Shown in pieces: positions 9,285 through 44,800 of a stretch of 64,000 bases of DNA; the first letter of the stretch is position 1, and every line of letters starts with the position of its first letter. A model generated the notes under the pieces. The model did not search any database. It saw only the letters and a list, made by a program, of their open reading frames with translations, and was not told where the DNA came from. The position numbers and the translations under genes were made by a program. The DNA lies in the NCBI RefSeq assembly GCF_006345805.1, contig NC_043015.1, positions 48,856,001 through 48,920,000 of the forward strand, read 5' to 3'. This stretch comes from Octopus sinensis (Eukaryota).

Positions 9285-10442
9285 TTAAGCTGCTGGGTTT
9301 GTTACCTTGCCGATGAAATAAATCAATTCAGTTCTTCTGTCAGCAATTAAAAATATGAACGGGTGATTAACATCAAATTTCGTTCCAGTCTGGGCTGATA
9401 CTGGATCAATTACCACTTCTCCGCTTGCGGCATGAGCATCTGTTCCTTTTTCATTTACATCAATAAATGTTTTATGAAAGAATTTACTCACATACAAATC
9501 CTTCTCACTACTTATTCCTGATAAATTCGCTTTGCTGGCATCAAAAATATCAGAAAGACCAAGTTTTTGTAAAGTATCAGATAACTCGAAAGCACTTTGA
9601 AAATGAAACTTTGGTAAATATAACTCCAGAGCTAATCGTTCAAAGCCTTTTCTCTCTTTAGTTTCTTTGAGAAATTGTGCATTAATTTCCTTCTCTAAAG
9701 CAGCAAGACCATCCATTTTATTAGGAAGAATTACAAACATACTAAATTTCACTCCCATGTAAGGTAACTCTACAGCTTTATAGTTCTGGCTTATTTTGGT
9801 ATTAAAATCTTCAGATATAAACATAGAATCACAAGATACAGTCTTGCCAGAACTTAGATGAAACTCTCTAGATGATGTTACTCTTTCTGGGAATCTTGCA
9901 GCCCACATTCCTTCAAAGTGCATGGCATTAACGAGAAGTAACACTGTATCAGAGGACAAACTTTTACTTGGTAACAGATCTGTGATTTTGTTATAAGTCT
10001 CATTCTTCACCCACTTATTAATATCAATTCTTATTCTTTCAGCATTTTTAAAGAAATCTACATTTTTAACATCCGTGAAAAAATATTCTGAAATCTTGTG
10101 CTTATAGCTTTCTGAAATAGGGAATTTATCCTCAACATACAAACGATTCACCGATTTACTCATGTGAGCTTCATTTGAATTCTTCTGAACCGAAAAATAT
10201 TTTTTATAAGCCAAAGCTAAATCATTTGGTGTTGAAGTTACATTCAAAACATTTTTCAACTGCTCAGCTGAGTTTTGTTTTGCTCCTAAATAAACCATTG
10301 ATAAAATGGTAGCAACACTGAAGGGGGACATGAAGACATTTTCATTGGTTCCTATGACCATTTCTTGAAAAAGGCTGGATGTAAAATGATCAACTGATGC
10401 AGCCAGGTTTTTAATCTCTTGGTGCTGGTTGGATGAGTTCAT
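9285..10442 (-). CDS. Serpin, intracellular (clade-B/leukocyte elastase inhibitor-like), 385 aa, single coding exon
   Basis: Motifs NVFMSPFSV, INKWVKNETYNKITDLL, LLVNAMHFEGMW, LYLPKF, hinge DVNEKGTDA, FDVNHPFIFLI; pyrimidine tract plus AG acceptor at 10460-10461 just before the ATG at 10442; no signal peptide seen. Confidence 0.95.
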   Translation of the reverse strand: MNSSNQHQEIKNLAASVDHFTSSLFQEMVIGTNENVFMSPFSVATILSMVYLGAKQNSAEQLKNVLNVTSTPNDLALAYKKYFSVQKNSNEAHMSKSVNRLYVEDKFPISESYKHKISEYFFTDVKNVDFFKNAERIRIDINKWVKNETYNKITDLLPSKSLSSDTVLLLVNAMHFEGMWAARFPERVTSSREFHLSSGKTVSCDSMFISEDFNTKISQNYKAVELPYMGVKFSMFVILPNKMDGLAALEKEINAQFLKETKERKGFERLALELYLPKFHFQSAFELSDTLQKLGLSDIFDASKANLSGISSEKDLYVSKFFHKTFIDVNEKGTDAHAASGEVVIDPVSAQTGTKFDVNHPFIFLIADRRTELIYFIGKVTNPAA

Positions 10443-10747
10443 CTTCTTGCTATTAATTTCTATAAAAATTAAAAAGTGCAATTTAGTTTATTTAAGAATT
10501 CCACAAGCACAAAATAATTTCAGACCAAATTAATAGTGAACACCAAAAACTTATTCATTAATTCCATAATCGATTTAATTGTATTCTCACTCCAAAATTA
10601 TCACCTTCAAGCAGCTTCATAAATATTTCCAAAGCAATATTTAGATCAGCAATTACAATAGAAGTATTAAGTTAAAGAGTTAATGAGCTCAATTTGACCT
10701 TGGCACATATTTAGATGGAAGGAAGTCCCAAAAATAAGACAACAATA

Positions 10748-21227: not shown

Positions 21228-21790
21228 AAGGCGGCAAGCTGGCAGAGTCGTTAGCATGCCGGGCGAAATGCTTAGCGATATTTCGTCAGCTGCTACGTTC
21301 TGAGTTCAAATTCAGCCGAGGTCAATTTTGCCTTTCATCCTTTCGGGATCAATTAAATAAGTACCAATTACGCACTTGATTATCATATAATAGACTTAAT
21401 CCGTTTGTCTGTCCTCTCTGTGTTTAGCCCCTTGTGGGTAGTAAAGAAATAGGTATTTCGTCTGCTGCTACGTTCTGAGTTCAAATTCCGCCGAGGTCGA
21501 CTTTGCCTTTCATCCTTTCAGGGTCGATTAAATAAGTACCAGTTACGCACTGGGATTGATATAATTGACTTAATTCGTTTGTCTGTCCTTGTTTGTCCTC
21601 TCTGTGTTTAGCCCCTTGTGGGTAGTAAAGAAATAGGTATTTCGTCTGCCACTACGTTCTGAGTTCAAATTTCTATTGAGGTTGATTTTGCCTTTCATCC
21701 TTTTGGGGTCGATAAATTGAGTACCAATGAAACACTGAGGTGTAAGCAACTATACCCCTCCCCACAAATTTAAGGCCTTGTGCCAATAAT
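21228..21790 (+). mobile_element. SINE family B with a triplicated 184-bp body
   Basis: Junction AAAGAAATAG|GTATTTCGTC at 21452 and 21636. Confidence 0.8.
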
Positions 21791-22179
21791 AGAAAGGATT
21801 ATTATTAAAGGTGGGTGAATGTCAGAAAAATGGCCGGTGTGAAAGGACCCATTTTAAGTATGCGCCTGTGAAAAACAAGAGAAGGGTTCCTGCCCTGTTG
21901 GTCAGGAACCCGTGGTTTTTGTGGGGTTTTCCACGAGTAGCCTTAAAACGTTCCCCCACTATTGGGTATTTTATTTGTTCAATTTTCAAACTTTCTTATG
22001 TTAAAACCCTGTGCCGACCAAAGTCTTGTGAGCAGATTTGGTAGATAGAAATTTTGAGTTCATAGAAGCCCATCATGTGTGTGTGTGTCTATCTATGTGA
22101 ATGTTCGTTTCCCACCACCGCTTATTTATTGGTGCTGGTTTGTTGTTTAGGTCCCAGCAATATAGTGGTTCGGCAAATG

Positions 22180-23014
22180 GGATCTTTTCGGTTTGAATGG
22201 CAGTTTTTTCTAGTGGTGTCATATGAAATTGTCACCCATAATTATGACCCTATTATCGATCTATTGCATTTCAATCTATTTTAGGGTTAGAGTTAGAGTT
22301 AGTTAGGGTTAGGGGAAGGGTATCTTTTTTGGTTTGGCATCAGTTACAGCTGAGTGCGGTAAGTGTTGTTTTGTCTTAATGAAAATGAACCTTCATTCAC
22401 CCCCCCCCCCTTTCATCCTCTCACAATCAAGATAGTCACCTTTCTTTTGCTAATTCTTCTCTGCCAGTATTTCCCAACCTATTTTCTATCACGCACCACT
22501 ATAATTTTCCAGCAAAATGTATGCTTCACTGGTGATTATACTTTCCTTAAAGAAATATCCACATATCCACACTAGGGCATTAGAATAGCACTGTTCTGGG
22601 ATCTTTTCGGTTTGAACGGCAGTTTTTTCTAGCGGTGTCATATGAAATTGTCACCCATAATTATGACCCTAGTATCGATCTATTGCATTTCAATCTGTTT
22701 TAGGGTTAGGGTAAGGGTTAAGGTTAGAGTGGGGGGAAGGGTATCTTTTTTTCTTCACAAATGTAAATAAACCCAATCTGTTTCTTAAACGAGGGACATA
22801 TTCATACGGCACAGAATGTTTTCACCTCAATAGACGTTATTGATCGGTTGAAATTGCAGAAATTGAAGAAAAAAAACAACAAATATCTTACAAACTATAG
22901 AATTTTCTCAATAGAGCCAAGAGAAAAAGATGTTTTATAAACACATTCTACCAGTATACGAAGTTTAAAAGTGTTTAGTTACGTGGAAATTATTTTTAAA
23001 AACCGAAAAGATCC
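22180..23014 (+). mobile_element. Composite hAT-type MITE carrying a fragment of the carrier gene's first coding exon and intron (Pack-TIR-like)
   Basis: Partial MITE 22180-22330, host copy 22331-22598 (matches 32870-33141), full MITE 22599-23014; single 8-bp TSD GGCAAATG at 22172-22179 and 23015-23022. Confidence 0.9.
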
Positions 23015-23740
23015 GGCAAATGACCAACAGAATAAGTCCCAGACTTTAAAAAAAATAATAAATACTGGAGTCGATTTTACGACTAAAACCTTCGAGGTGG
23101 TGCTCCAACATAGTCGCAGTCCAACGCTTAAAACGGATAAATGATGAATTGATTATTTATTCACTATAAATGTTGGATGTACTTTAGTAAACAACGCCAC
23201 GCGTTTAAAGAGACGAACCGGTGTATAATAAGAAAAGGTAGCAACGTAAAAATATACCGTGTAAACAGTGAAAGTTGAAATGACATTTAAACTTAGTAAT
23301 CTAATTCCAATAAAACTTCGTGTCTAGGAAGTAGAACTGAGGAGTGTGGTGGACAAACGAGGCATGCCAAAGACTAGAGTGTCCTTAGAAAACATCGTAA
23401 AAAAGACAAAGAAAAAGGGATTCTTTTGAATGAAATTTTTTACAAATATTTTTCAGCTGGTGTAGGTGTGTAGATCATAATTATATCGGAAAAATGTGAA
23501 AAAAAAAAAAAAGAAAAAAAAAGGTAAGCGCACACACATACATACTGACACATATCACATGAATAATTGAATAATTACATAATGAAACTTGAAATTCTCA
23601 ACCATTTTTCACTTTTAGAACCTTGATTCCTATTTTTCTTTGCAGGATCCCACTAACCATTCGCTGTTAAAAAAAATCTTATTATATTTTTATAATTAAA
23701 TATTATTAGGAATTGTATAAAAAAAATTGCTAAAATGTTT

Positions 23741-23895
23741 GGATCTTTTCCTTTTGAACGACGAAATATCTTACAAACTATAGAATTTTCTCAATAAAGC
23801 CAAGAAAAAATGATGTTTTATAAACACATTCTACCAGTATACGAAGTTTAAAAGTGTTTAGTTAGCTAGAAATTGTGTTGACATGGAAAAGATCC
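23741..23895. mobile_element. 155-bp deletion derivative of the hAT-type MITE
   Basis: TIRs GGATCTTTTCC / GGAAAAGATCC; 8-bp TSD AAATGTTT on both sides. Confidence 0.85.
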
Positions 23896-24239
23896 AAATG
23901 TTTTGTGTATTGTAGAAGTATAAGCAATTTATTGCACATATATTTGAACAAAATCTTATATGGACCCCCAGTTCAGAACAATAATTGATCAATGCTATCA
24001 GAAAGAAACTTGTAGAAAACTTCATTAAAAAAAATATCTATTTTTCTGAATGTTATGCGGGGTGATTGGAATATCATCTGAAAAGTATTTGTGGAAAATT
24101 TCTTCCAAAAATATCCATTTTTTTCTAAAGTTACAATGAAACAGTCTATGGGGCACGTTTATGTAGTTATGCATAGGACGTTTCGCTATAATTAGTCCGT
24201 ACGTGAACTGGTACATCACTTTCACACCAACCACGTGGA

Positions 24240-32839: not shown

Positions 32840-32897
32840 ATGAGTGATTGGAGACCGTTTGTATATGGTGGTTTGGCATCAGTTACAGCTGAGTGCG
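32840..32897 (+). CDS. SLC25A30: Carrier coding exon 1
   Basis: [19 protein letters not shown]; acceptor AG at 32822-32823; donor GTAAG. Confidence 0.92.
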
Positions 32898-35800
32898 GTA
32901 AGTTTTGCTTTGTCTCAATAAAAATGAACCCTCATTCACACCTCCCCCCTTTCATCCTCTCACAGTCAAGATAAGTCACCTTTCTTTTTCTAATTCTTCT
33001 TCTCTGCCAGTATTTCCCAACCTATTTTCCATCACATGCCACTATAATTTTCCAGTAAAATGTATGCTTTACTGGTGATTATACTTTCCTTAAAGAAATA
33101 TCCACATATCCACACTAGGGCATTAGAATAGCACTGTTCTGGGATCTTTTCGGTTTGAATAGCAGTTTTTTCTAGCAGTGTCATATGAAATTGTTACCCA
33201 TAATTATGACCCTAGTATCGATCTATTGCATTTCAATCTGTTTTAGGGTTAGGGGTGGGGAGAAGGGTATCTTTTTTTTCTTCAGAAATGTAAATAAACC
33301 CAATCTATTTCTTAGATGAGGAACATATTCATACGGCACAGAATGTTTTCACCTCAATGGACGTCATTGATTGGTTGAAATTGCAGAAATTGAAGAAAAA
33401 AACAACGAATATCTTACAAACTATAGAATTTTCTCAATAAAGCCAAGAGAAAAAAATGTTTTATAAACACATTCTACCAGTATACGAGGTTTAAAAGTGT
33501 TTAGTTACGTGGAAATTATTTTAAAAAACTGCCGGTCAAACCGAAAAGATCCCTGTTCTGTAGTAAACAGTCTTCACGCAGCATGCTTGGCTGGAGGGAT
33601 TGGTTCAGCTAGGCTGAATGTAGGTGTAGTATGCTTGCTGCTTAAAAAGATTTTCACAGTTACAAGTCCCACAATTTTCCCAGCGCCCCACCAGTGGGGC
33701 ATATACCCCATGGTGGGAATCATAGCTCTATACCATACAACCTTTTTGTTAGCTACAGACTCTTTGTAAACTCCTTTTACCATCCATCATTTTTCCAGTA
33801 TGCACTTGATGTACCAGACAGAGAAGGACTGGTGTTATTTTTACTTTTAAAGTACAGTTGATGTAATATATATATATGTGTGTATATATATGTGTGTGTA
33901 TATATATGTGTGTGTATATATATGTGTGTGTATATATATGTGTGTGTATATATATGTGTGTGTATATATATGTGTATATATGTGTGTGTATATATATGTG
34001 TGTGTATATATATATGTGTGTGTATATATATATGTGTGTGTATATATATGTGTGTGTGTATATATATGTGTGTGGTATATATATGTGTGTGTATATATAT
34101 GTGTGTGTGTATATATATGTGTGTGTATATATATGTGTGTGTATATATATATGTGTGTGTATATATATATGTGTGTGTATATATATGTGTGTGTGTATAT
34201 ATGTGTGTGTGTATATATGTGTGTATGTGTGTGTGTGTGTGGTGTGTGTGTGTGTGTGTGTGTATATGTGGTGTGTGTGTGTATATGTGTGTGTGTGTAT
34301 ATGTGTGTATATGTGTGTGTGTATATGTGTGTGTGTGTATATGTGTGTGTGTGTATATATGTGTGTGTATGTGTGTGTGTGTGTGTGTATATATGTGTGT
34401 GTGTGTATATATATGTATATATATTATATTCTTGTTGTTTAACTTCTGATCAAACTGACCACTGTAATCAAAAATGTTCCAACTGTTGCCAGACCTACTT
34501 TTTAGGGCTTAGATTTCATTATCCAATACACCCTTACTTTATTTTTTTTTTTTAAAGACTAGGGTGAGATTTGATGGGGGATTTGGCTGCTATTTTCACG
34601 AAGTCAAATGATCACGTAAAAGCTTGCTTGTTATCTCCTGTTTACATAACCTTGTTGAATATGTAAATTAAAAACCTGAGAGGCACTCAGAGTATTTGCC
34701 AGGAAATTGTTATATCCTGATAAATTTTGAATAAGTTATCAGTTGAAATATGTCAAGATCACATAAGCCAAACCCATCTTAACAGGAGTGGAGAGAGAAA
34801 GAGAGAGACAGAGAGTGTGTGTAATTTGAAATGTTTGGAGAATGAAAAAGAGGCTAATGATTTAGTTTTTATCATCGTCATTTAAGGTCCATGTTCCATT
34901 CTTATTTCTTTACTGCCCACAAGGGGGACAAACAAGGTCAGATAAACTGATTGTTGATTATATCGACCCCAGTGCATAACTGGCACTTATTTAATCGACC
35001 CCGAAAGGATGAAAGGCAAAGTCGACCTCGGCGGAATTTGAACTCAGAATGTAGCGGCAGACGAAATACTTATTTCTTTATTGCCCACAAGAGGCTAAAC
35101 ATAGAAGGGAAAACAAGGACAGACAAAGGGATTAAGTCGATTACATCGACCCTAGTGCATAACTGGTACTTAATTTATTGACCCCGAAAGGATGAATGGC
35201 AAAGTCGACCTCGGCGGAATTTGAACTCAGAATGTAGCGGAAGATGAAATCCTGCTAAGCATTTTGCCCGGCGTGCTAACGTTTTTGCTAGCTTGCCACC
35301 CTTCATTCTGGCATGGGTCAGGTGCTTTGACAGGATCTAATGGGTCCCAGGATTGTATCATGCTCCAATGTCTGCTTTGGTATGATTTCTATGACTGTAT
35401 GCCCTTTCTAATGCCAACCATTTTGCAGGGTGTACTGAGTGCATGCTTTCATGCCACCAGCACTAGCAAGGTTACCATATAGCTCACAAGACTATAAAGC
35501 CTGATATGAGGGGTGGGTGTGGCAGCTTTATACTAGGAGATGAGGAATTAAAGCAGTGGAATTAAGGCCTTTGGGGGTCTATTTAACCCTTTTGTTACCA
35601 ACCCGGCTGAAGCTAGCTCTGGCTTTGTAGTACAAATGTCTTGTTTTCAAAAGTTCTGAATTAAAATCTTCCACCAAACCTTAGTCACAATTTATGTTCC
35701 TAACACTAGCTTACTGATAACTAAGTTATTTTACTAAATTCTTTGTTATATTTAAAGTAATTGAAAGAAACACAGAACATCTCAAAATAAATACAATAAC

Positions 35801-38800
35801 GAAAAGGTTAAGATTCTGTTAAAACTTATCTGCAATAAATTGGTTATATTTTTACAACTCACAAAATATTTTAACACTGTTTTTTTTTTTTTTTATTATT
35901 ATAAAAATATAATAGGATTTATATTATACTACCCTGAAACATGTCTGACCAGCAAGGTGAAGCGGCTGACCTCCCCTGTTCAAAGGTTATAATGGATGCA
36001 GGTTCGTGTGTCATATAGCTAGCTAGAGGCGATGGCCTCTTGGAGCTGATCAGCGGCAGCTTTAGTCTTTTATTTATAGACTACCATATTAGCTTGGCGA
36101 TAACTATTAATAATAGGATTTGTTAAACATCACATGGCTATGAGGGTCCATCTGTGTAAAATTGGAACCAAAGGGGTCCATAGGAAAAAAAGTTGTTGGG
36201 AACCACTGGAGGTGGGTGGTAAGCAGGGACTTGTTGTACTCACCTTTATAAGAACAGCTGAGTTTTCACTCCATAATTACAGAGTGAGATTGGTATGTCA
36301 GCTATAGAAAGAAAAGTGACAGAAAGATTAGCTAAACACTTTAATGGCTGAAAGAGTGTCAAAGAATTAATATGGCCTTTGTTCAATGAATGCAGTTTCT
36401 GTTAGACTGAAGTTGTCAATTTCTTTTCTTTTCTTTGTATTTTCTTTTTCTAAATCTTGTTTACTCAGTATTCCAACAGGTTTGGTGTCTTCTAGATTGA
36501 TTTTACTTTCTTCTCTCCTTCACTCATTCTTCTCCACTTCCTACTAGATACATAAACCGTTAAAGATTATCTCTAATAATGTTTCACTGTCGAGCATGTC
36601 ACATTCAGTGGTAACTTTGGCTGATTAGACTTGGATTTTTTCACAATGCCCTGTGTGAAATATTGAGTAAGATCTGACTTGTTCCTAAACTTGTATTAGT
36701 CGTTATTTCTTTCAAACTGGTGTGGGGTTAAATAAAGTTAAGATTCATATTTTGGCAAAGTTTCATTCAATGACATGTAGCTCATTTCTTTCACTACCTC
36801 AAGAACCATCCATTCACAACTGTTATTGCCTATGATGATGATGATTTTGTAAAACATTAAATAATGCATTTTCGTCATTTCCTTCGAAAAATAGGGACAT
36901 TTCCAATTGACACCACAAAAACACGTCTTCAGGTGCAAGGGCAAGTTATTGATTCAAGGCTAACAGAATGCAAGTACCGGGGTATGTTTCATGCCTTTGT
37001 GAGAATCTTCCGCGAAGAAGGACTCTTAGCATTCTATTCAGGGTAAGTAATTATCTCCATGTTCAAACTTCTCACTGTTGCTTGTTTGGTCCTTAACATA
37101 GCTGTGGCCACAAAAGATGTATATTTTCAACATATAGCAAGATACCTGTTCCTGTCTCTTTATCATACTTTAATCCTTTAGTTTTTAAAGACCCACTCCG
37201 GTCATGACCATGGGATTGAACCTAGAAAGTTATCCTCTAAGGCGCAAGTCCAGGCAAGGTTGTTTATGGAAGACCAGCAGTCGCCCATGCATACCAGCCT
37301 CTCCTCTCCATGCCTCCAATGTTATTCAAGGGAAAGGCAAAACTCAATATAGTTTGGCACCAGTGATGCCGCAACTCATTTGTACAGTTTAGTGAATTGG
37401 AGCAATGTAAAATGAATTGTCTTGTTCAAGAACACAACAAACAACCCGATCCAGGAATTGAACTTGCTACCTCATGATTGTGGGCCCAATGCTCTAACCA
37501 CTGAGCCATGCACCTTTAATATTTAATCCAGCTATAGGAGTGGCTGTGTGGTAAGTAGCTTGCTTACCAACCACATGGTTCTGGGTTCAGTCTCACTGCA
37601 TGGCACCTTGGGCAAGTGTCTTCTGCTATAGCTTCGGGCCGACCAAAGCCTTGTGAGTGGATTTGGTAGACGGAAACTGAAAGAAGCCCATCGTATATAT
37701 GTATATATATATATATGTATGTGTTTGTGTATTTGTGTTTGTCCCCCCAACATTGCTTGACAACTGATGCTGGTGTGTTTAGGTCCCCGTAACTTAGCAG
37801 TTCGGCAAAAGAGACCGATAGAATAAGTACTAGGCTTACAAAGAATAAGTCCTGGGGTAGATTTGCTTGACTAAAGGTGGTGCTCCAGCATGGCCACAGT
37901 CACATGACTGAAACAAGTAAAAGAGAGTAAGAGTAACCCAAATATTCTACCATGTTTTATGTTAGAACTGACCTGGTCCAACCTCTCACACCTACCCTAC
38001 AATGACATTCTAAAAATTATATACAAACTCACCATTGAAATCTCTAACACTATAAACAACACATAATTCAAAACAAGGTGAATAAATAAGCAATACAATT
38101 GACAAAGAAATCTGAATGCTAAAAGTTCAACCTTTCATCATCTGGTACAAAGCTACTTCTCTCAAGACTCACCTCAGTTGAGACAGGGGCCTTGTCTTGC
38201 AAGTTACTTGGTGACCTCACCAGTGCTGGTGCCACATAAAAAGCAACCAGCATACGCTGTAAAGTTGCTGGCATTAGGAACATCACTCAGCCACATAAAT
38301 CATATCAAAGCAGACAATGAAGATTGGTGCGATTCTCTAGCTTGCCAGCTTCTCTTGAATTGTCCAACCCATGCCAGCATTGAAAACAGATGTTGAATGA
38401 TGGTGATATGTAATCCTGACATGCTTGAGTTAGTAGTTGTTTTCAACTCTAGGCCATCCCTCATTCAGCAGGCATATAGTCACAAGTATTGACGAAAGAC
38501 CGAGATCTCTGGAGATATGCTGTGACTGTGAAGACCTGACAAATAATGTGAGTTCATGGCTGTTTCCTGCACCAGTTTCACATAGCAGCCCCAACCCATC
38601 CAAAGTACCTTGGATTGCAGAATGGCCTGCTGTGCTTACATTGGATCGTAGGGCGACCTGCTGTGCTTGAGGAGACCTATCGAGTCATGTACATCAAAAT
38701 AAAAGTCAAATGGAAATTGTACTTGTGATACCCATGCCGGTGGCATGTTAAAAGCACCATCCGAACATGGCTGATGCCAGTGCCACCTTGACTGGCTTCC

Positions 38801-41800: not shown

Positions 41801-44800
41801 TTAATTTATCGACCCTGAAAAGATGAAAGGCAAAGTTGACCTCAGTGGAATTTGAACTCGGAACATAAAGACAGACAAAATACTGCTAAGCATTTCGCCT
41901 GTGTGCTAACGTTTCTGCCACCTCACCTTCTTAATTTAACTTCAATATTAACAAGATTTGAAGTTAGTGAGCTGGCCGAATTGTTAGCATGCCAGGCAAA
42001 ATGTTTAGCAACATTTCATCTAAATGTTCTGAGTTCAAATTCTGCCTTTCACTCTTTTGAGGTCAATAAAATAAGTACCAGTTGTGTGCTGGTGTCAATG
42101 TAATTAACTTACCCCTCCTTCAAAATTGCTGCCTTTGTGGCATAATTATTTGAAATCATTATTTAAGATCAGAAGCCATCAGAACCACTGTCTGGTACTG
42201 CATCAGGGCATTATTTGTTGTTGTTGTTAGATATCTAGAAAATATTTTAAATACTTTGCAAATATTTATCTTGAGCTTTATTGTAAATTAACATTAATCT
42301 TATGCTGTTCTGTATTCATTTCAGATGAAACGCTCGCTACGAATGTTTTTTGCGGTGTTGTTGCTGGTATAGTTTCTAGTTCTATAGCCAATCCTACTGA
42401 CGTACTCAAAGTAAGAATCCATTTGTTGCTCAACATTTTACTGTAAAACTAGCTAACTTTTATGATAGCTTCTATTTTGTATATTTTATGCATCACTGGT
42501 TTGAGCACACACACACATACACACACACATTAGATTTTTCCTTTTCTTTGTAAGGTGGTTGTCATTAGGAAGGGCATCCAGTTATAGAAACCAAACCAAA
42601 ACAGACAGTGGTGTCTGGTATGGCCCCAGGCCATGCCAGCTCCTGTCAAGTCATCCAACCATGCCAGCATGGAAAATGGATGTTAAATGGTGGTGAATGA
42701 AATGGTAGGTGATCTCTTACAAAGTGCAAAGACTTTTGGTTGGAACTTTGTGTTTCTGATGTGAGATGGAAACAAAAATAGTAGAAGCCCTAGATTGAAA
42801 TGATAAGGAACTATCATTTCAATCCGGGGCTTCTACCATTTTTGTCTCCATATGGAATGAGAACAATTGGGTGCAGCTGTCAGAATGCTGGAGGTTTGGC
42901 ATAGCTGTGTGGACATTTATCCTGTTTTGGCAAAAGTACTTTCCAGTGCTGGGGACACACACACACATGCACAGAAATATATACATTCGGATAGAAAGAG
43001 TGAGAGACATAATTTATTGATTGAACATGTTTCACATAAACACTTTCCGTTCCTTCATACACATAAAGAGATGTTCACCCACAAACAGAAAATGTGTGAG
43101 GAGAGGTAGAAAGACATATCAATTTATTAATTGATTATGTTTGACATAAACACTTTCCATCTTCTCATACACATCATCATCATCACTGTTTAACGTCCGC
43201 TTTCCATGCTATCATGGGTTGGACGATTTGACTGAGGACTGGCGAACCAGATGGCTGCACCAAGCTCCAATCTTGATCTGGCAGAGTTTCTACAGCTGGA
43301 TGCCCTTCCTAATGCCAACCACTCTGACATAAAAAGAAATCTGCTCACACATAAAGAGAGAGATGGGGGACAGAAGGGTTTAATACACAGACAAATAAAC
43401 AAATATGTTACTACTATTACACATCATGTGGAGGCGCGTGGCTTAGTGGTTAGGGTGTCAGCATCATGATCGTAAGATCGTGTTTTCGATTCCTGGACCG
43501 GGTGACGCATTGTGTTCTTGAGCAAAACACTTCATTTTTCACGTTGATCCAGTCCACTCAGCTGGCAAAAATGAGTAACACTGCTATGGACTGGCGTCCC
43601 GTCCAGCTGGGGAACACATACGCCATAAAAACCGGGAAACTGGGCCCATGAGCCTGGCTAGGCTTTAAAGGGGCGCAGTGGAGGGGCATGGCTTAGTGGT
43701 TAGGGTGTCAGCATCATGATTATAAGATCATGTTTTCGATTCCTGGACCGGGTGACGTGTTGTGTTCTTGAGCAAAACACTTCATTTTTCACGTTGCTCC
43801 AGTCCACTCAGCTGGCAAAAATTAGTAACACTATGATGGACTGGCGTCCCGTCCAGCTGGGGAACACATACGCCATGGAAACCGGGCCCATGAGCCTGGC
43901 TAGGCTTTAAAGGGGTGCAGTGGAGGGACATGGCTTAGTGGTTAGGGTGTCAGCATCATGATTGTAAGATTGTGTTTTCGATTCCTGGACCGGGTGACGC
44001 ATTGTGTTCTTGAGCAAAACACTTCATTTTTCACGTTGATCCAGTCCACTCAGCTGGCAAAAATGAGCAACACTGCGATGGACTGGCGTCCCGTCCAGCT
44101 GGGGAACACATACGCCATAGAAACCAGGAAACCGGGCCTATGAGCCTGGCTAGGCTTTAAAAGGGTGCATTTATTTTTTATATTATTACACATTATACAG
44201 AGAGTAATTTTAATTGAAACTTTATTTTATTGCTTAAAGGTAAGGATGCAAGCTAAGACCGAAAGTTTACAGACTTCAATGTTTCAGTCTTTTATACAAA
44301 TTTACAAGAAAGAAGGTGTTCGAGGATTATGGAGAGTGAGTATTTTTTCCTTTACCTTTTTTTTGTTGTTTCCTTCAGTTTTTTTGTCCCACCTATTTAT
44401 AGTGTCTGTACGAGGAGGATGGAGGCTGTGTGGTTAAGACTGAAATATGTGGTTCAGTCCCACCGTGTGACGCCTTGGGTAAGTGTCTTTTGCTCTGGCT
44501 ACAGGCTCGTGAGTGTGAGTATTTTCATCTTTGTCTCTAACCCCTGCAACTACTTAGCAACTGGTGTTGGTTTATTTATGTCCCTGTAATTTAGCAGTTT
44601 ATCAAAAGTGACTGAGAGAATAAGTACCAGGCGTAAAAAATATATAAGTTCTGATGTTGATTTTTTTTTTTTTACTAAATCCTGCATGGTAGTACCCTGC
44701 ATGGGTACCAAGCTAGGGTTTGATATTTTTGATTAAATTTTTGTAACTTGTGTATATATTTTTATCAAAAATTTTGACTATTAATTCTTGCAGGGAGTCG

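Follow-up and report, generated by a model that had tools for sequence, protein, structure and literature searches.

Genomic Setting of the Composite

The stretch of DNA analyzed here (the window) comprises 64,000 nucleotides of contig NC_043015.1 of Octopus sinensis (positions 48,856,001 to 48,920,000, forward strand), and contains both a serpin open reading frame and a gene encoding a mitochondrial carrier. The serpin ORF (9285-10487, minus strand) is intronless, encodes 400 aa, matches the Pfam Serpin profile over its full length (E 2.9e-105), and is the upstream neighbor of the carrier gene, to which it is divergently oriented. The coding part of carrier exon 1 (32840-32897, plus strand) specifies 19 amino acids followed by a G that is completed in exon 2, and exon 2 itself lies within 36861-37043. 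Farther downstream, carrier motifs are found in an ORF at 36861-37043 (Pfam Mito_carr, E 5.5e-11) and in another at 42231-42443 (E 5.8e-6), and the gene presumably resembles the SLC25A14/30 branch. Within the ~22-kb stretch between the serpin ORF on the minus strand and carrier exon 1, 10.5 kb upstream of that exon and on the same strand, lies a composite of MITE sequence and copied gene DNA (22172-23022) that is the subject of this report.

The DNA from which the gene-derived part of the composite was copied is located at the carrier gene itself (32870-33141, plus strand), and extends from the last part of exon 1 through early intron 1, including the left half of an older repeat (hereafter repeat B), to the octamer CTGTTCTG. 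Immediately downstream is a 411-bp MITE (33142-33552, plus strand; the intron-1 MITE) that is inserted into repeat B and bracketed by CTGTTCTG on both sides (33134-33141 and 33553-33560). This MITE represents a real insertion, as uninterrupted repeat B paralogs occur at two other sampled loci (L003 and L006). Repeat B, which occupies 33000-33141 and 33553-33672 around the intron-1 MITE, is present in dozens of diverged genomic copies with 69-89% identity. Just 3' of the intron-1 MITE, and likewise within intron 1, is a 560-bp compound (TA)n(TG)n microsatellite (33866-34429) that is open in all six reading frames.

Anatomy of the Composite

Reading of the window and alignment of the two loci confirmed the layout of the composite nearly to the base, and each element of the original prediction, which had described MITE sequence flanked by a target-site duplication (TSD) and enclosing DNA from the end of exon 1 and the beginning of intron 1, was found in place. 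The composite, all parts of which are on the plus strand, opens with the left TSD, GGCAAATG (22172-22179), a match at 8 of 8 positions to the right copy (23015-23022). There follows a 5' partial MITE (22180-22330) that corresponds to consensus positions 1-137, contains the 5' TIR with one mismatch, an expanded TTAGGG-like array and a terminal T-run, and carries private changes at positions 19, 35, 74, and 99. Adjoining the partial MITE is a captured, non-MITE host segment of 268 bp (22331-22598) that matches 32870-33141 and is made up of the last 28 nt of carrier exon 1 (22331-22358), the start of intron 1 from its GTAAGT donor onward (22359-22590, of which 22458-22590 is the left half of repeat B), and a copy of the left TSD of the intron-1 MITE, CTGTTCTG (22591-22598). 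A full-length inner MITE (22599-23014) then extends to the right TSD; it was present as predicted, save that it starts one base earlier than had been implied, and it has a 12-bp deletion inside its 3' TIR as well as a C allele at position 144 and a T allele at position 382. Both the shared CTGTTCTG and the match of the host segment to 32870-33141 uphold the earlier identification of the donor as the site of the intron-1 MITE, 10.5 kb downstream.

Across 268 aligned positions the host segment and its parent differ by 15 substitutions and 2 indels (94.4% identity), while their first 34 nt (22331-22364) are identical. The captured DNA stops exactly at the 5' junction of the parental MITE, includes the TSD of that MITE, and contains none of its 3' flank. 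On its inner-MITE side the captured piece passes seamlessly into MITE sequence, so that this boundary is one of long MITE homology, whereas the sole non-homologous junction of the composite, 22330/22331, shows a microhomology of 1 nt (a single shared T), which is no more than chance gives. The overall arrangement is that of a Pack-TIR: host DNA (22331-22598) lies between a 5' TIR beginning at 22180 and a 3' terminus at 23014, a TSD surrounds the whole, and a parental copy can be identified at 32870-33141.

Insertion Site

The composite interrupts a ~320-bp interspersed, SINE-like repeat, the left part of which occupies 21989-22171 and the right part 23023-23155, and paralogs of this repeat both within the window and at sampled loci align up to the TSD. 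In all 40 paired paralogs recovered from 594 kb of sampled DNA, the two flanks abut and the octamer is present once; the offset between the flanks is exact in 28 of these and departs by 1-3 nt, from alignment indels, in the remaining 12. As 40 paralogous copies are uninterrupted at the site, the outer ends of the composite are those of a true insertion. Furthermore, the paralogs mostly read GGCAAAAG while both TSD copies here carry the private variant GGCAAATG, from which it follows that this repeat copy's own variant was duplicated upon insertion. The outer ends of the composite were thereby shown to be those of a genuine transposon insertion.

The interrupted repeat had been described as a family A SINE. 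Its abundance is evident from the 84 left-flank and 83 right-flank matches in the 594 kb of sampled DNA, and a short, very abundant repeat is what a SINE would be. The SINE identity itself was not borne out, in that no Pol III-type head (tRNA, 5S, or 7SL) was recognized: 21500-23500 contains neither an ARAGORN (tRNA) hit nor an Rfam hit at E<=1, a search that a diverged head could escape.

Copy Number and Independent Sequence Data

At full length, the host segment matches only itself and the parental locus in a search of the genome. Specifically, the 127 bp of the segment that are unique (22331-22457) gave two candidates and two matches in the 2.7-Gb genome, and the composite has therefore not been amplified; further composite copies, for which the original prediction had suggested a search, are thus absent from the genome as assembled. 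The 3' half of the segment consists of the left half of repeat B and accordingly has many further matches, at 69-89% identity. The two copies of the host segment are on the same contig and the same strand, 10,539 bp apart, and the composite is accordingly in single copy with its parent in cis, the state associated with Pack-TIRs that originate by gap filling.

The similarity of the composite to the gene locus has two exact ends, the 22330/22331 junction to the left and the terminus of the MITE to the right, and the DNA outside them is unrelated. With ends as sharp as these, no segmental duplication extends beyond the element. Together with the 40 of 40 empty-site paralogs, these ends agree with the earlier reading of the locus as a Pack-TIR-like capture in which homology does not continue past the TSDs.

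The second copy of the host segment is real. When Logan contigs from four organism labels (A-D) were compared with the composite and with the gene locus, contigs of all four labels were found to hold the composite-specific host copy, the cover being clear in labels A, B, and D and weak in label C. In runs of labels A, B, and D, the composite-type and gene-type versions of 22335-22483 form separate contigs, and in run X1 the interval 22335-22616 is tiled by contigs that match it without a difference. Contigs extend 24 nt into the left outer junction and 18 nt into that between host segment and inner MITE, both of which fall below the 31-nt criterion for bridging. Logan contigs begin at 22335, so the join at 22330/22331 rests on the assembly. 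A contig across this join is not to be expected, as the two loci are identical over 22331-22364 and de Bruijn contigs end at such shared 31-mers. In X8 and X16, loose contig ends at 22330 lead on into ordinary MITE sequence and are indistinguishable from other copies of the family. The joints seen among the contigs, considered as signs of an empty or simple-MITE allele, derive from other copies of the repeat.

The MITE Family and Its Classification

The MITE belongs to a large family, with at least 4075 first-look candidates in the genome, and 40 scored full-length copies are 93-95% identical to the intron-1 copy. The consensus is 411 bp long and has 30-nt TIRs that start with GGATC, giving termini of the form GGATC...GATCC. 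An 8-bp TSD is typical of the family: among 40 copies with intact termini (58 sampled), it was perfect in 26 and had one mismatch in 4. These 30 TSDs have an A/T-rich center, and 20 of them carry A as the second base and 14 carry T as the seventh. A telomere-like (TTAGGG)n array followed by a G-run is located within the MITE at consensus positions ~103-127 (22283-22320, 22702-22740, and 33245-33265 in the window), and structured variants of this array, with TTAGAG units and a short TTAG unit, recur among the copies.

Five segments of the family are present in the window when the two parts of the composite are counted separately. One of these is a full copy at 1351-1760 with the TSD CCCTAATC. 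Another, 730 bp downstream of the composite, is a deletion derivative of ~154 bp (23743-23896) that keeps both termini and its own 8-bp TSD, AAATGTTT; its deletion joins ~position 22 to ~262, and part of the 3' TIR region is missing as well. Rearranged copies are not rare in the genome at large, and additional short or inverted fragments of the same family accompany copies at G000:C27:9918830-9919340, C27:16410675-16411135, L044, and L058. A second MITE segment was found nearby at 8 of the 58 sampled loci, and at none of these did it end at position 137, the breakpoint of the composite.

The original prediction assigned the MITE to the hAT superfamily, the hallmarks of which are a YARNG-type terminal motif and the target consensus nTnnnnAn. 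Only the 8-bp TSD fits this assignment: the ends of the MITE are GG...CC, the target pattern is the opposite of that of hAT elements, and the TIR was found at none of 23 sampled loci around Dimer_Tnp_hAT matches (+/-1.5 kb; 1386 first-look candidates). Elements of the Merlin superfamily have 8-9-bp TSDs and TIRs beginning with GG. The ends and the 8-bp TSD of the MITE are compatible with Merlin, a compatibility that does not amount to proof, and the TIR was present at none of 12 sampled DDE_Tnp_IS1595 (Merlin) loci out of 690 first-look candidates. Merlin transposase is abundant in this genome, with 150 matches scored of the 690 candidates, many with intact frames of ~300 aa. One 1358-bp Merlin element (L082:817-2174) has GG...CC TIRs of 106 nt that are 99% complementary and a 9-bp TSD, and one weak Merlin transposase match lies 17 kb upstream of the window.

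Origin of the MITE Parts

The alignment with other MITE copies that the original prediction had called for sets the parts of the composite against a majority line built from 97 distinct genomic copies. Relative to this line, private substitutions number 13 in the intron-1 MITE, where several fall at CpG, ~5 in the inner MITE, and 4 outside the array in the partial MITE, and no derived state is common to any two of the three. It follows from the lack of shared derived states that all three MITEs were near the consensus at the time of the event, during activity of the family. At position 144, G is found in 60 and C in 36 of the 97 copies, and at position 382, A in 63 and T in 29, and four samples chosen in different ways all gave similar allele frequencies at both positions. 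The inner MITE has C/T where the intron-1 MITE has G/A, and when genomic matches to the inner MITE are ranked, the intron-1 copy is missing from the best 40.

Because the alleles at 144 and 382 differ, no derived substitution is shared, and the intron-1 copy is not among the best 40, the inner MITE from position 144 on is likely to be a resident element, and these data do not support its being a copy of the intron-1 MITE. The same comparison moderately favors the view that the inner MITE would own the right-hand GGCAAATG. At position 99 the partial MITE has A, an allele found in 7 of the 97 copies, and the inner MITE has G. The TTAGGG-like array measures 33 bp in the partial MITE, 35 bp in the inner MITE, and 18 bp in the intron-1 copy.

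The weight that these markers can bear depends upon how they behave across the family. The polymorphisms at 144, 382, and 394 show no linkage to each other or to array length among the 97 copies (loci L014-L167), which suggests either that they are mutational hot spots or that recombination or template switching among copies is frequent. If 144 and 382 are hot spots, the argument for a resident inner MITE would be weakened. Array length was itself rejected as a marker of origin, as lengths of 17-72 bp occur in copies selected independently of it. Similarly, 224T and 231C were set aside as candidate subfamily markers, since they occur only in samples picked for their likeness to the inner MITE, and never together. 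For polarizing the 15 host differences, only three repeat B paralogs were usable.

Proposed Mechanism of Formation

The reading that we prefer, with a confidence somewhat better than even, is that the intron-1 MITE served as the ectopic template for repair of a resident MITE, giving a single-copy Pack-TIR-like product. A MITE already inserted at GGCAAATG would have been broken, or would have stalled in replication, and the repair template would have been the intron-1 MITE of the same family, ectopically homologous, 10.5 kb away, and on the same strand. Synthesis would then have passed the 5' end of the intron-1 MITE and CTGTTCTG and continued through the start of intron 1 to a point 28 nt inside exon 1, where the new strand, with 1 nt of microhomology, would have been joined to the T-run of the MITE on the opposite side of the break. 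Two variants of this scheme can be envisaged. In one, the break would have occurred at ~position 137/138, and the right-hand end would have invaded the intron-1 MITE and copied leftwards out of it. In the other, the resident MITE would have been cleaved at its 5' terminus, with that end extended on the upstream flank of the intron-1 MITE while the other end copied 137 nt from the sister chromatid. The MITE markers fit neither variant cleanly, and do not separate a resident from an intron-1 source for positions 1-143 of the inner MITE. We infer the prior existence of a simple resident MITE, the kind of break that it suffered, and the route of its repair (SDSA or gap filling versus replicative switching).

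Several observations favor repair on the intron-1 MITE. Firstly, a lone non-homologous junction with a seamless opposite side is what homology-guided invasion of the intron-1 MITE predicts. Secondly, a gap-filling origin was inferred for single-copy animal Pack-TIRs in cis, with a median microhomology of 2 bp, by Tan et al. (2021; Nat Commun 12:4280, PMC8277862), and the presence here of two copies, in cis and 10,539 bp apart, matches both the cis bias and the single-copy state that these authors tie to gap filling. Thirdly, the deletion derivative 730 bp away is of the type given as the usual product of abortive gap repair in PMC3814204, and this derivative (23743-23896) shows that such repair products exist in the neighborhood. 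In addition, the breakpoint lies directly 3' of the G-rich TTAGGG-like array and the T-run, which together would make a plausible stall or break site. Also in favor of this reading are the exact stop of the captured DNA at the 5' junction of the intron-1 MITE, the family-typical outer TSD with its empty-site paralogs, and the differing alleles of the inner MITE at 144 and 382. Counting against repair of a resident MITE is that an orthologous site with a simple MITE was not seen among the contigs of the four labels, all of which are of the composite type.

An alternative, which we disfavor and consider doubtful, is that the composite formed at the gene and then hopped as a unit in a FoSTeST-like manner. 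Replication would have stalled at the array and T-run in the intron-1 MITE and slipped back ~409 bp to exon 1, generating a local tandem duplication; transposase would have cut the partial copy at its 5' end and the full copy at its 3' end, moving the composite 10.5 kb upstream and creating GGCAAATG, and the gene would have been restored from the sister chromatid. This scheme is economical in that it needs only a short-range switch and ordinary cut-and-paste transposition, it accounts both for a TSD around the whole composite and for a filler that is the DNA exactly upstream of a MITE, and the presence of five family members in the 64-kb window would fit local hopping. A model of this kind is also described for multicopy Pack-TIRs in PMC8277862. 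However, it predicts that the MITE parts were identical at the time of the event, and the inner and intron-1 MITEs differ at both 144 and 382, the partial MITE differs from both others at 99, and the three arrays are of 33, 35, and 18 bp. Moreover, the composite was never amplified (2 of 2 genomic matches of the host piece), and the same paper ties the FoSTeST route to multicopy, distal Pack-TIRs and not to single-copy ones in cis. Of the two mechanisms that the original prediction had offered, template switching or repair between neighboring MITE copies is thus the better one.

That the arrangement instead reflects a segmental duplication, non-allelic recombination unrelated to a transposon, or an assembly artefact is highly improbable: the region is repeat-dense and no displayed independent contig bridges 22330/22331, but homology ends exactly at that junction and at the MITE terminus with unrelated flanks, the host copies differ at 15 of 268 positions, both versions form separate contigs in independent runs of three organism labels, zero-difference contigs tile 22335-22616 in run X1, and the outer TSD and empty-site paralogs are those of a transposase-type insertion.

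Relation to Known Systems

The Pack-TIR phenomenon has been documented in 100 animal (UCSC) genomes (PMC8277862). The words octopus, crassostrea, mollus, and cephalopod gave no match in a word search of the main text and 12 supplementary files of that paper, and the composite described here is probably outside the set of Tan et al. As with the single-copy Pack-TIRs described there, a fragment of a host gene resides within a TIR element, is present in single copy with a parent in cis within kilobases, and is delimited by a breakpoint that is internal to the element; short microhomology at a breakpoint is a further feature of those Pack-TIRs, and here amounts to 1 nt. Unlike those cases, the filler has at one of its ends a second copy of the MITE itself, whose TSD is retained. 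As this second copy and its TSD are retained, one of the switches was homology-guided, and part of the MITE was duplicated rather than replaced.

In plants, Pack-MULEs and related Pack-type elements are in many cases multicopy and mobile, and some are transcribed. Like Pack-MULEs, the composite consists of gene fragments between transposon termini flanked by a TSD; unlike them, it is present as one copy with a damaged 3' TIR, has no coding potential, and was not seen to be expressed. Pack-type elements of plants are named in the abstract of PMC8277862 as well.

A further parallel is provided by abortive gap repair, or SDSA with template switching, at the excision sites of Ac/Ds, P, and Tc1 elements (Rubin and Levy, 1997; Nassif et al., 1994; both as cited in PMC3814204). 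There, as in the reading preferred here, synthesis on a homologous copy of the element is interrupted or switched and then followed by end joining, yielding deletion derivatives and filler DNA; the differences from those cases are that the template here would have been a neighboring MITE and that synthesis would have continued beyond its end into host DNA. FoSTeST, as set out in PMC8277862, involves stalling in a TIR element, a template switch, and transposition of the resulting chimera, and so resembles the alternative weighed above; it predicts that all MITE parts derive from the copy at the gene locus, and usually amplification, neither of which fits well here.

The composite is therefore a single-copy Pack-TIR-like capture, a known kind of event, and a clean but ordinary example of transposon-mediated duplication that introduces no new principle. 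Its value lies in its unusual legibility, given that parent, product, both target duplications, the sole non-homologous junction, and paralogous empty sites can all be read within 11 kb, and in the detail that it adds to the gap-filling picture, namely that template choice was guided by a second copy of the same element beside the captured DNA.

Consequences for the Carrier Gene

The copied piece of exon lacks an in-frame ATG, and an in-frame TAG is located 7 codons upstream within the MITE; the composite therefore adds no coding capacity. Immobility of the composite is suggested by its damaged 3' TIR, which is 12 bp short, and by its presence in single copy; it is probably a non-coding, immobile relic. 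Two putative RNA runs (X15 and X16, as Logan contigs) give no cover over 22362-22589, a result that shows nothing either way, and X16 covers ~22338-22361 only, a stretch that is identical to the real exon 1.

In the copy, the GTAAGT donor remains intact, and it is placed upstream of the gene in the same orientation; judging by its sequence and position, its use in an alternative, non-coding first exon is conceivable. A broader proposition is that MITE copies serve as homology landing pads from which repair regularly spills into the flanks, systematically duplicating exon ends and splice sites near genes, with the GTAAGT donor in this instance furnishing an alternative non-coding first exon of its own gene; this we regard as very unlikely. 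At the level of a single event, the composite illustrates how exon ends and splice donors get copied to new places.
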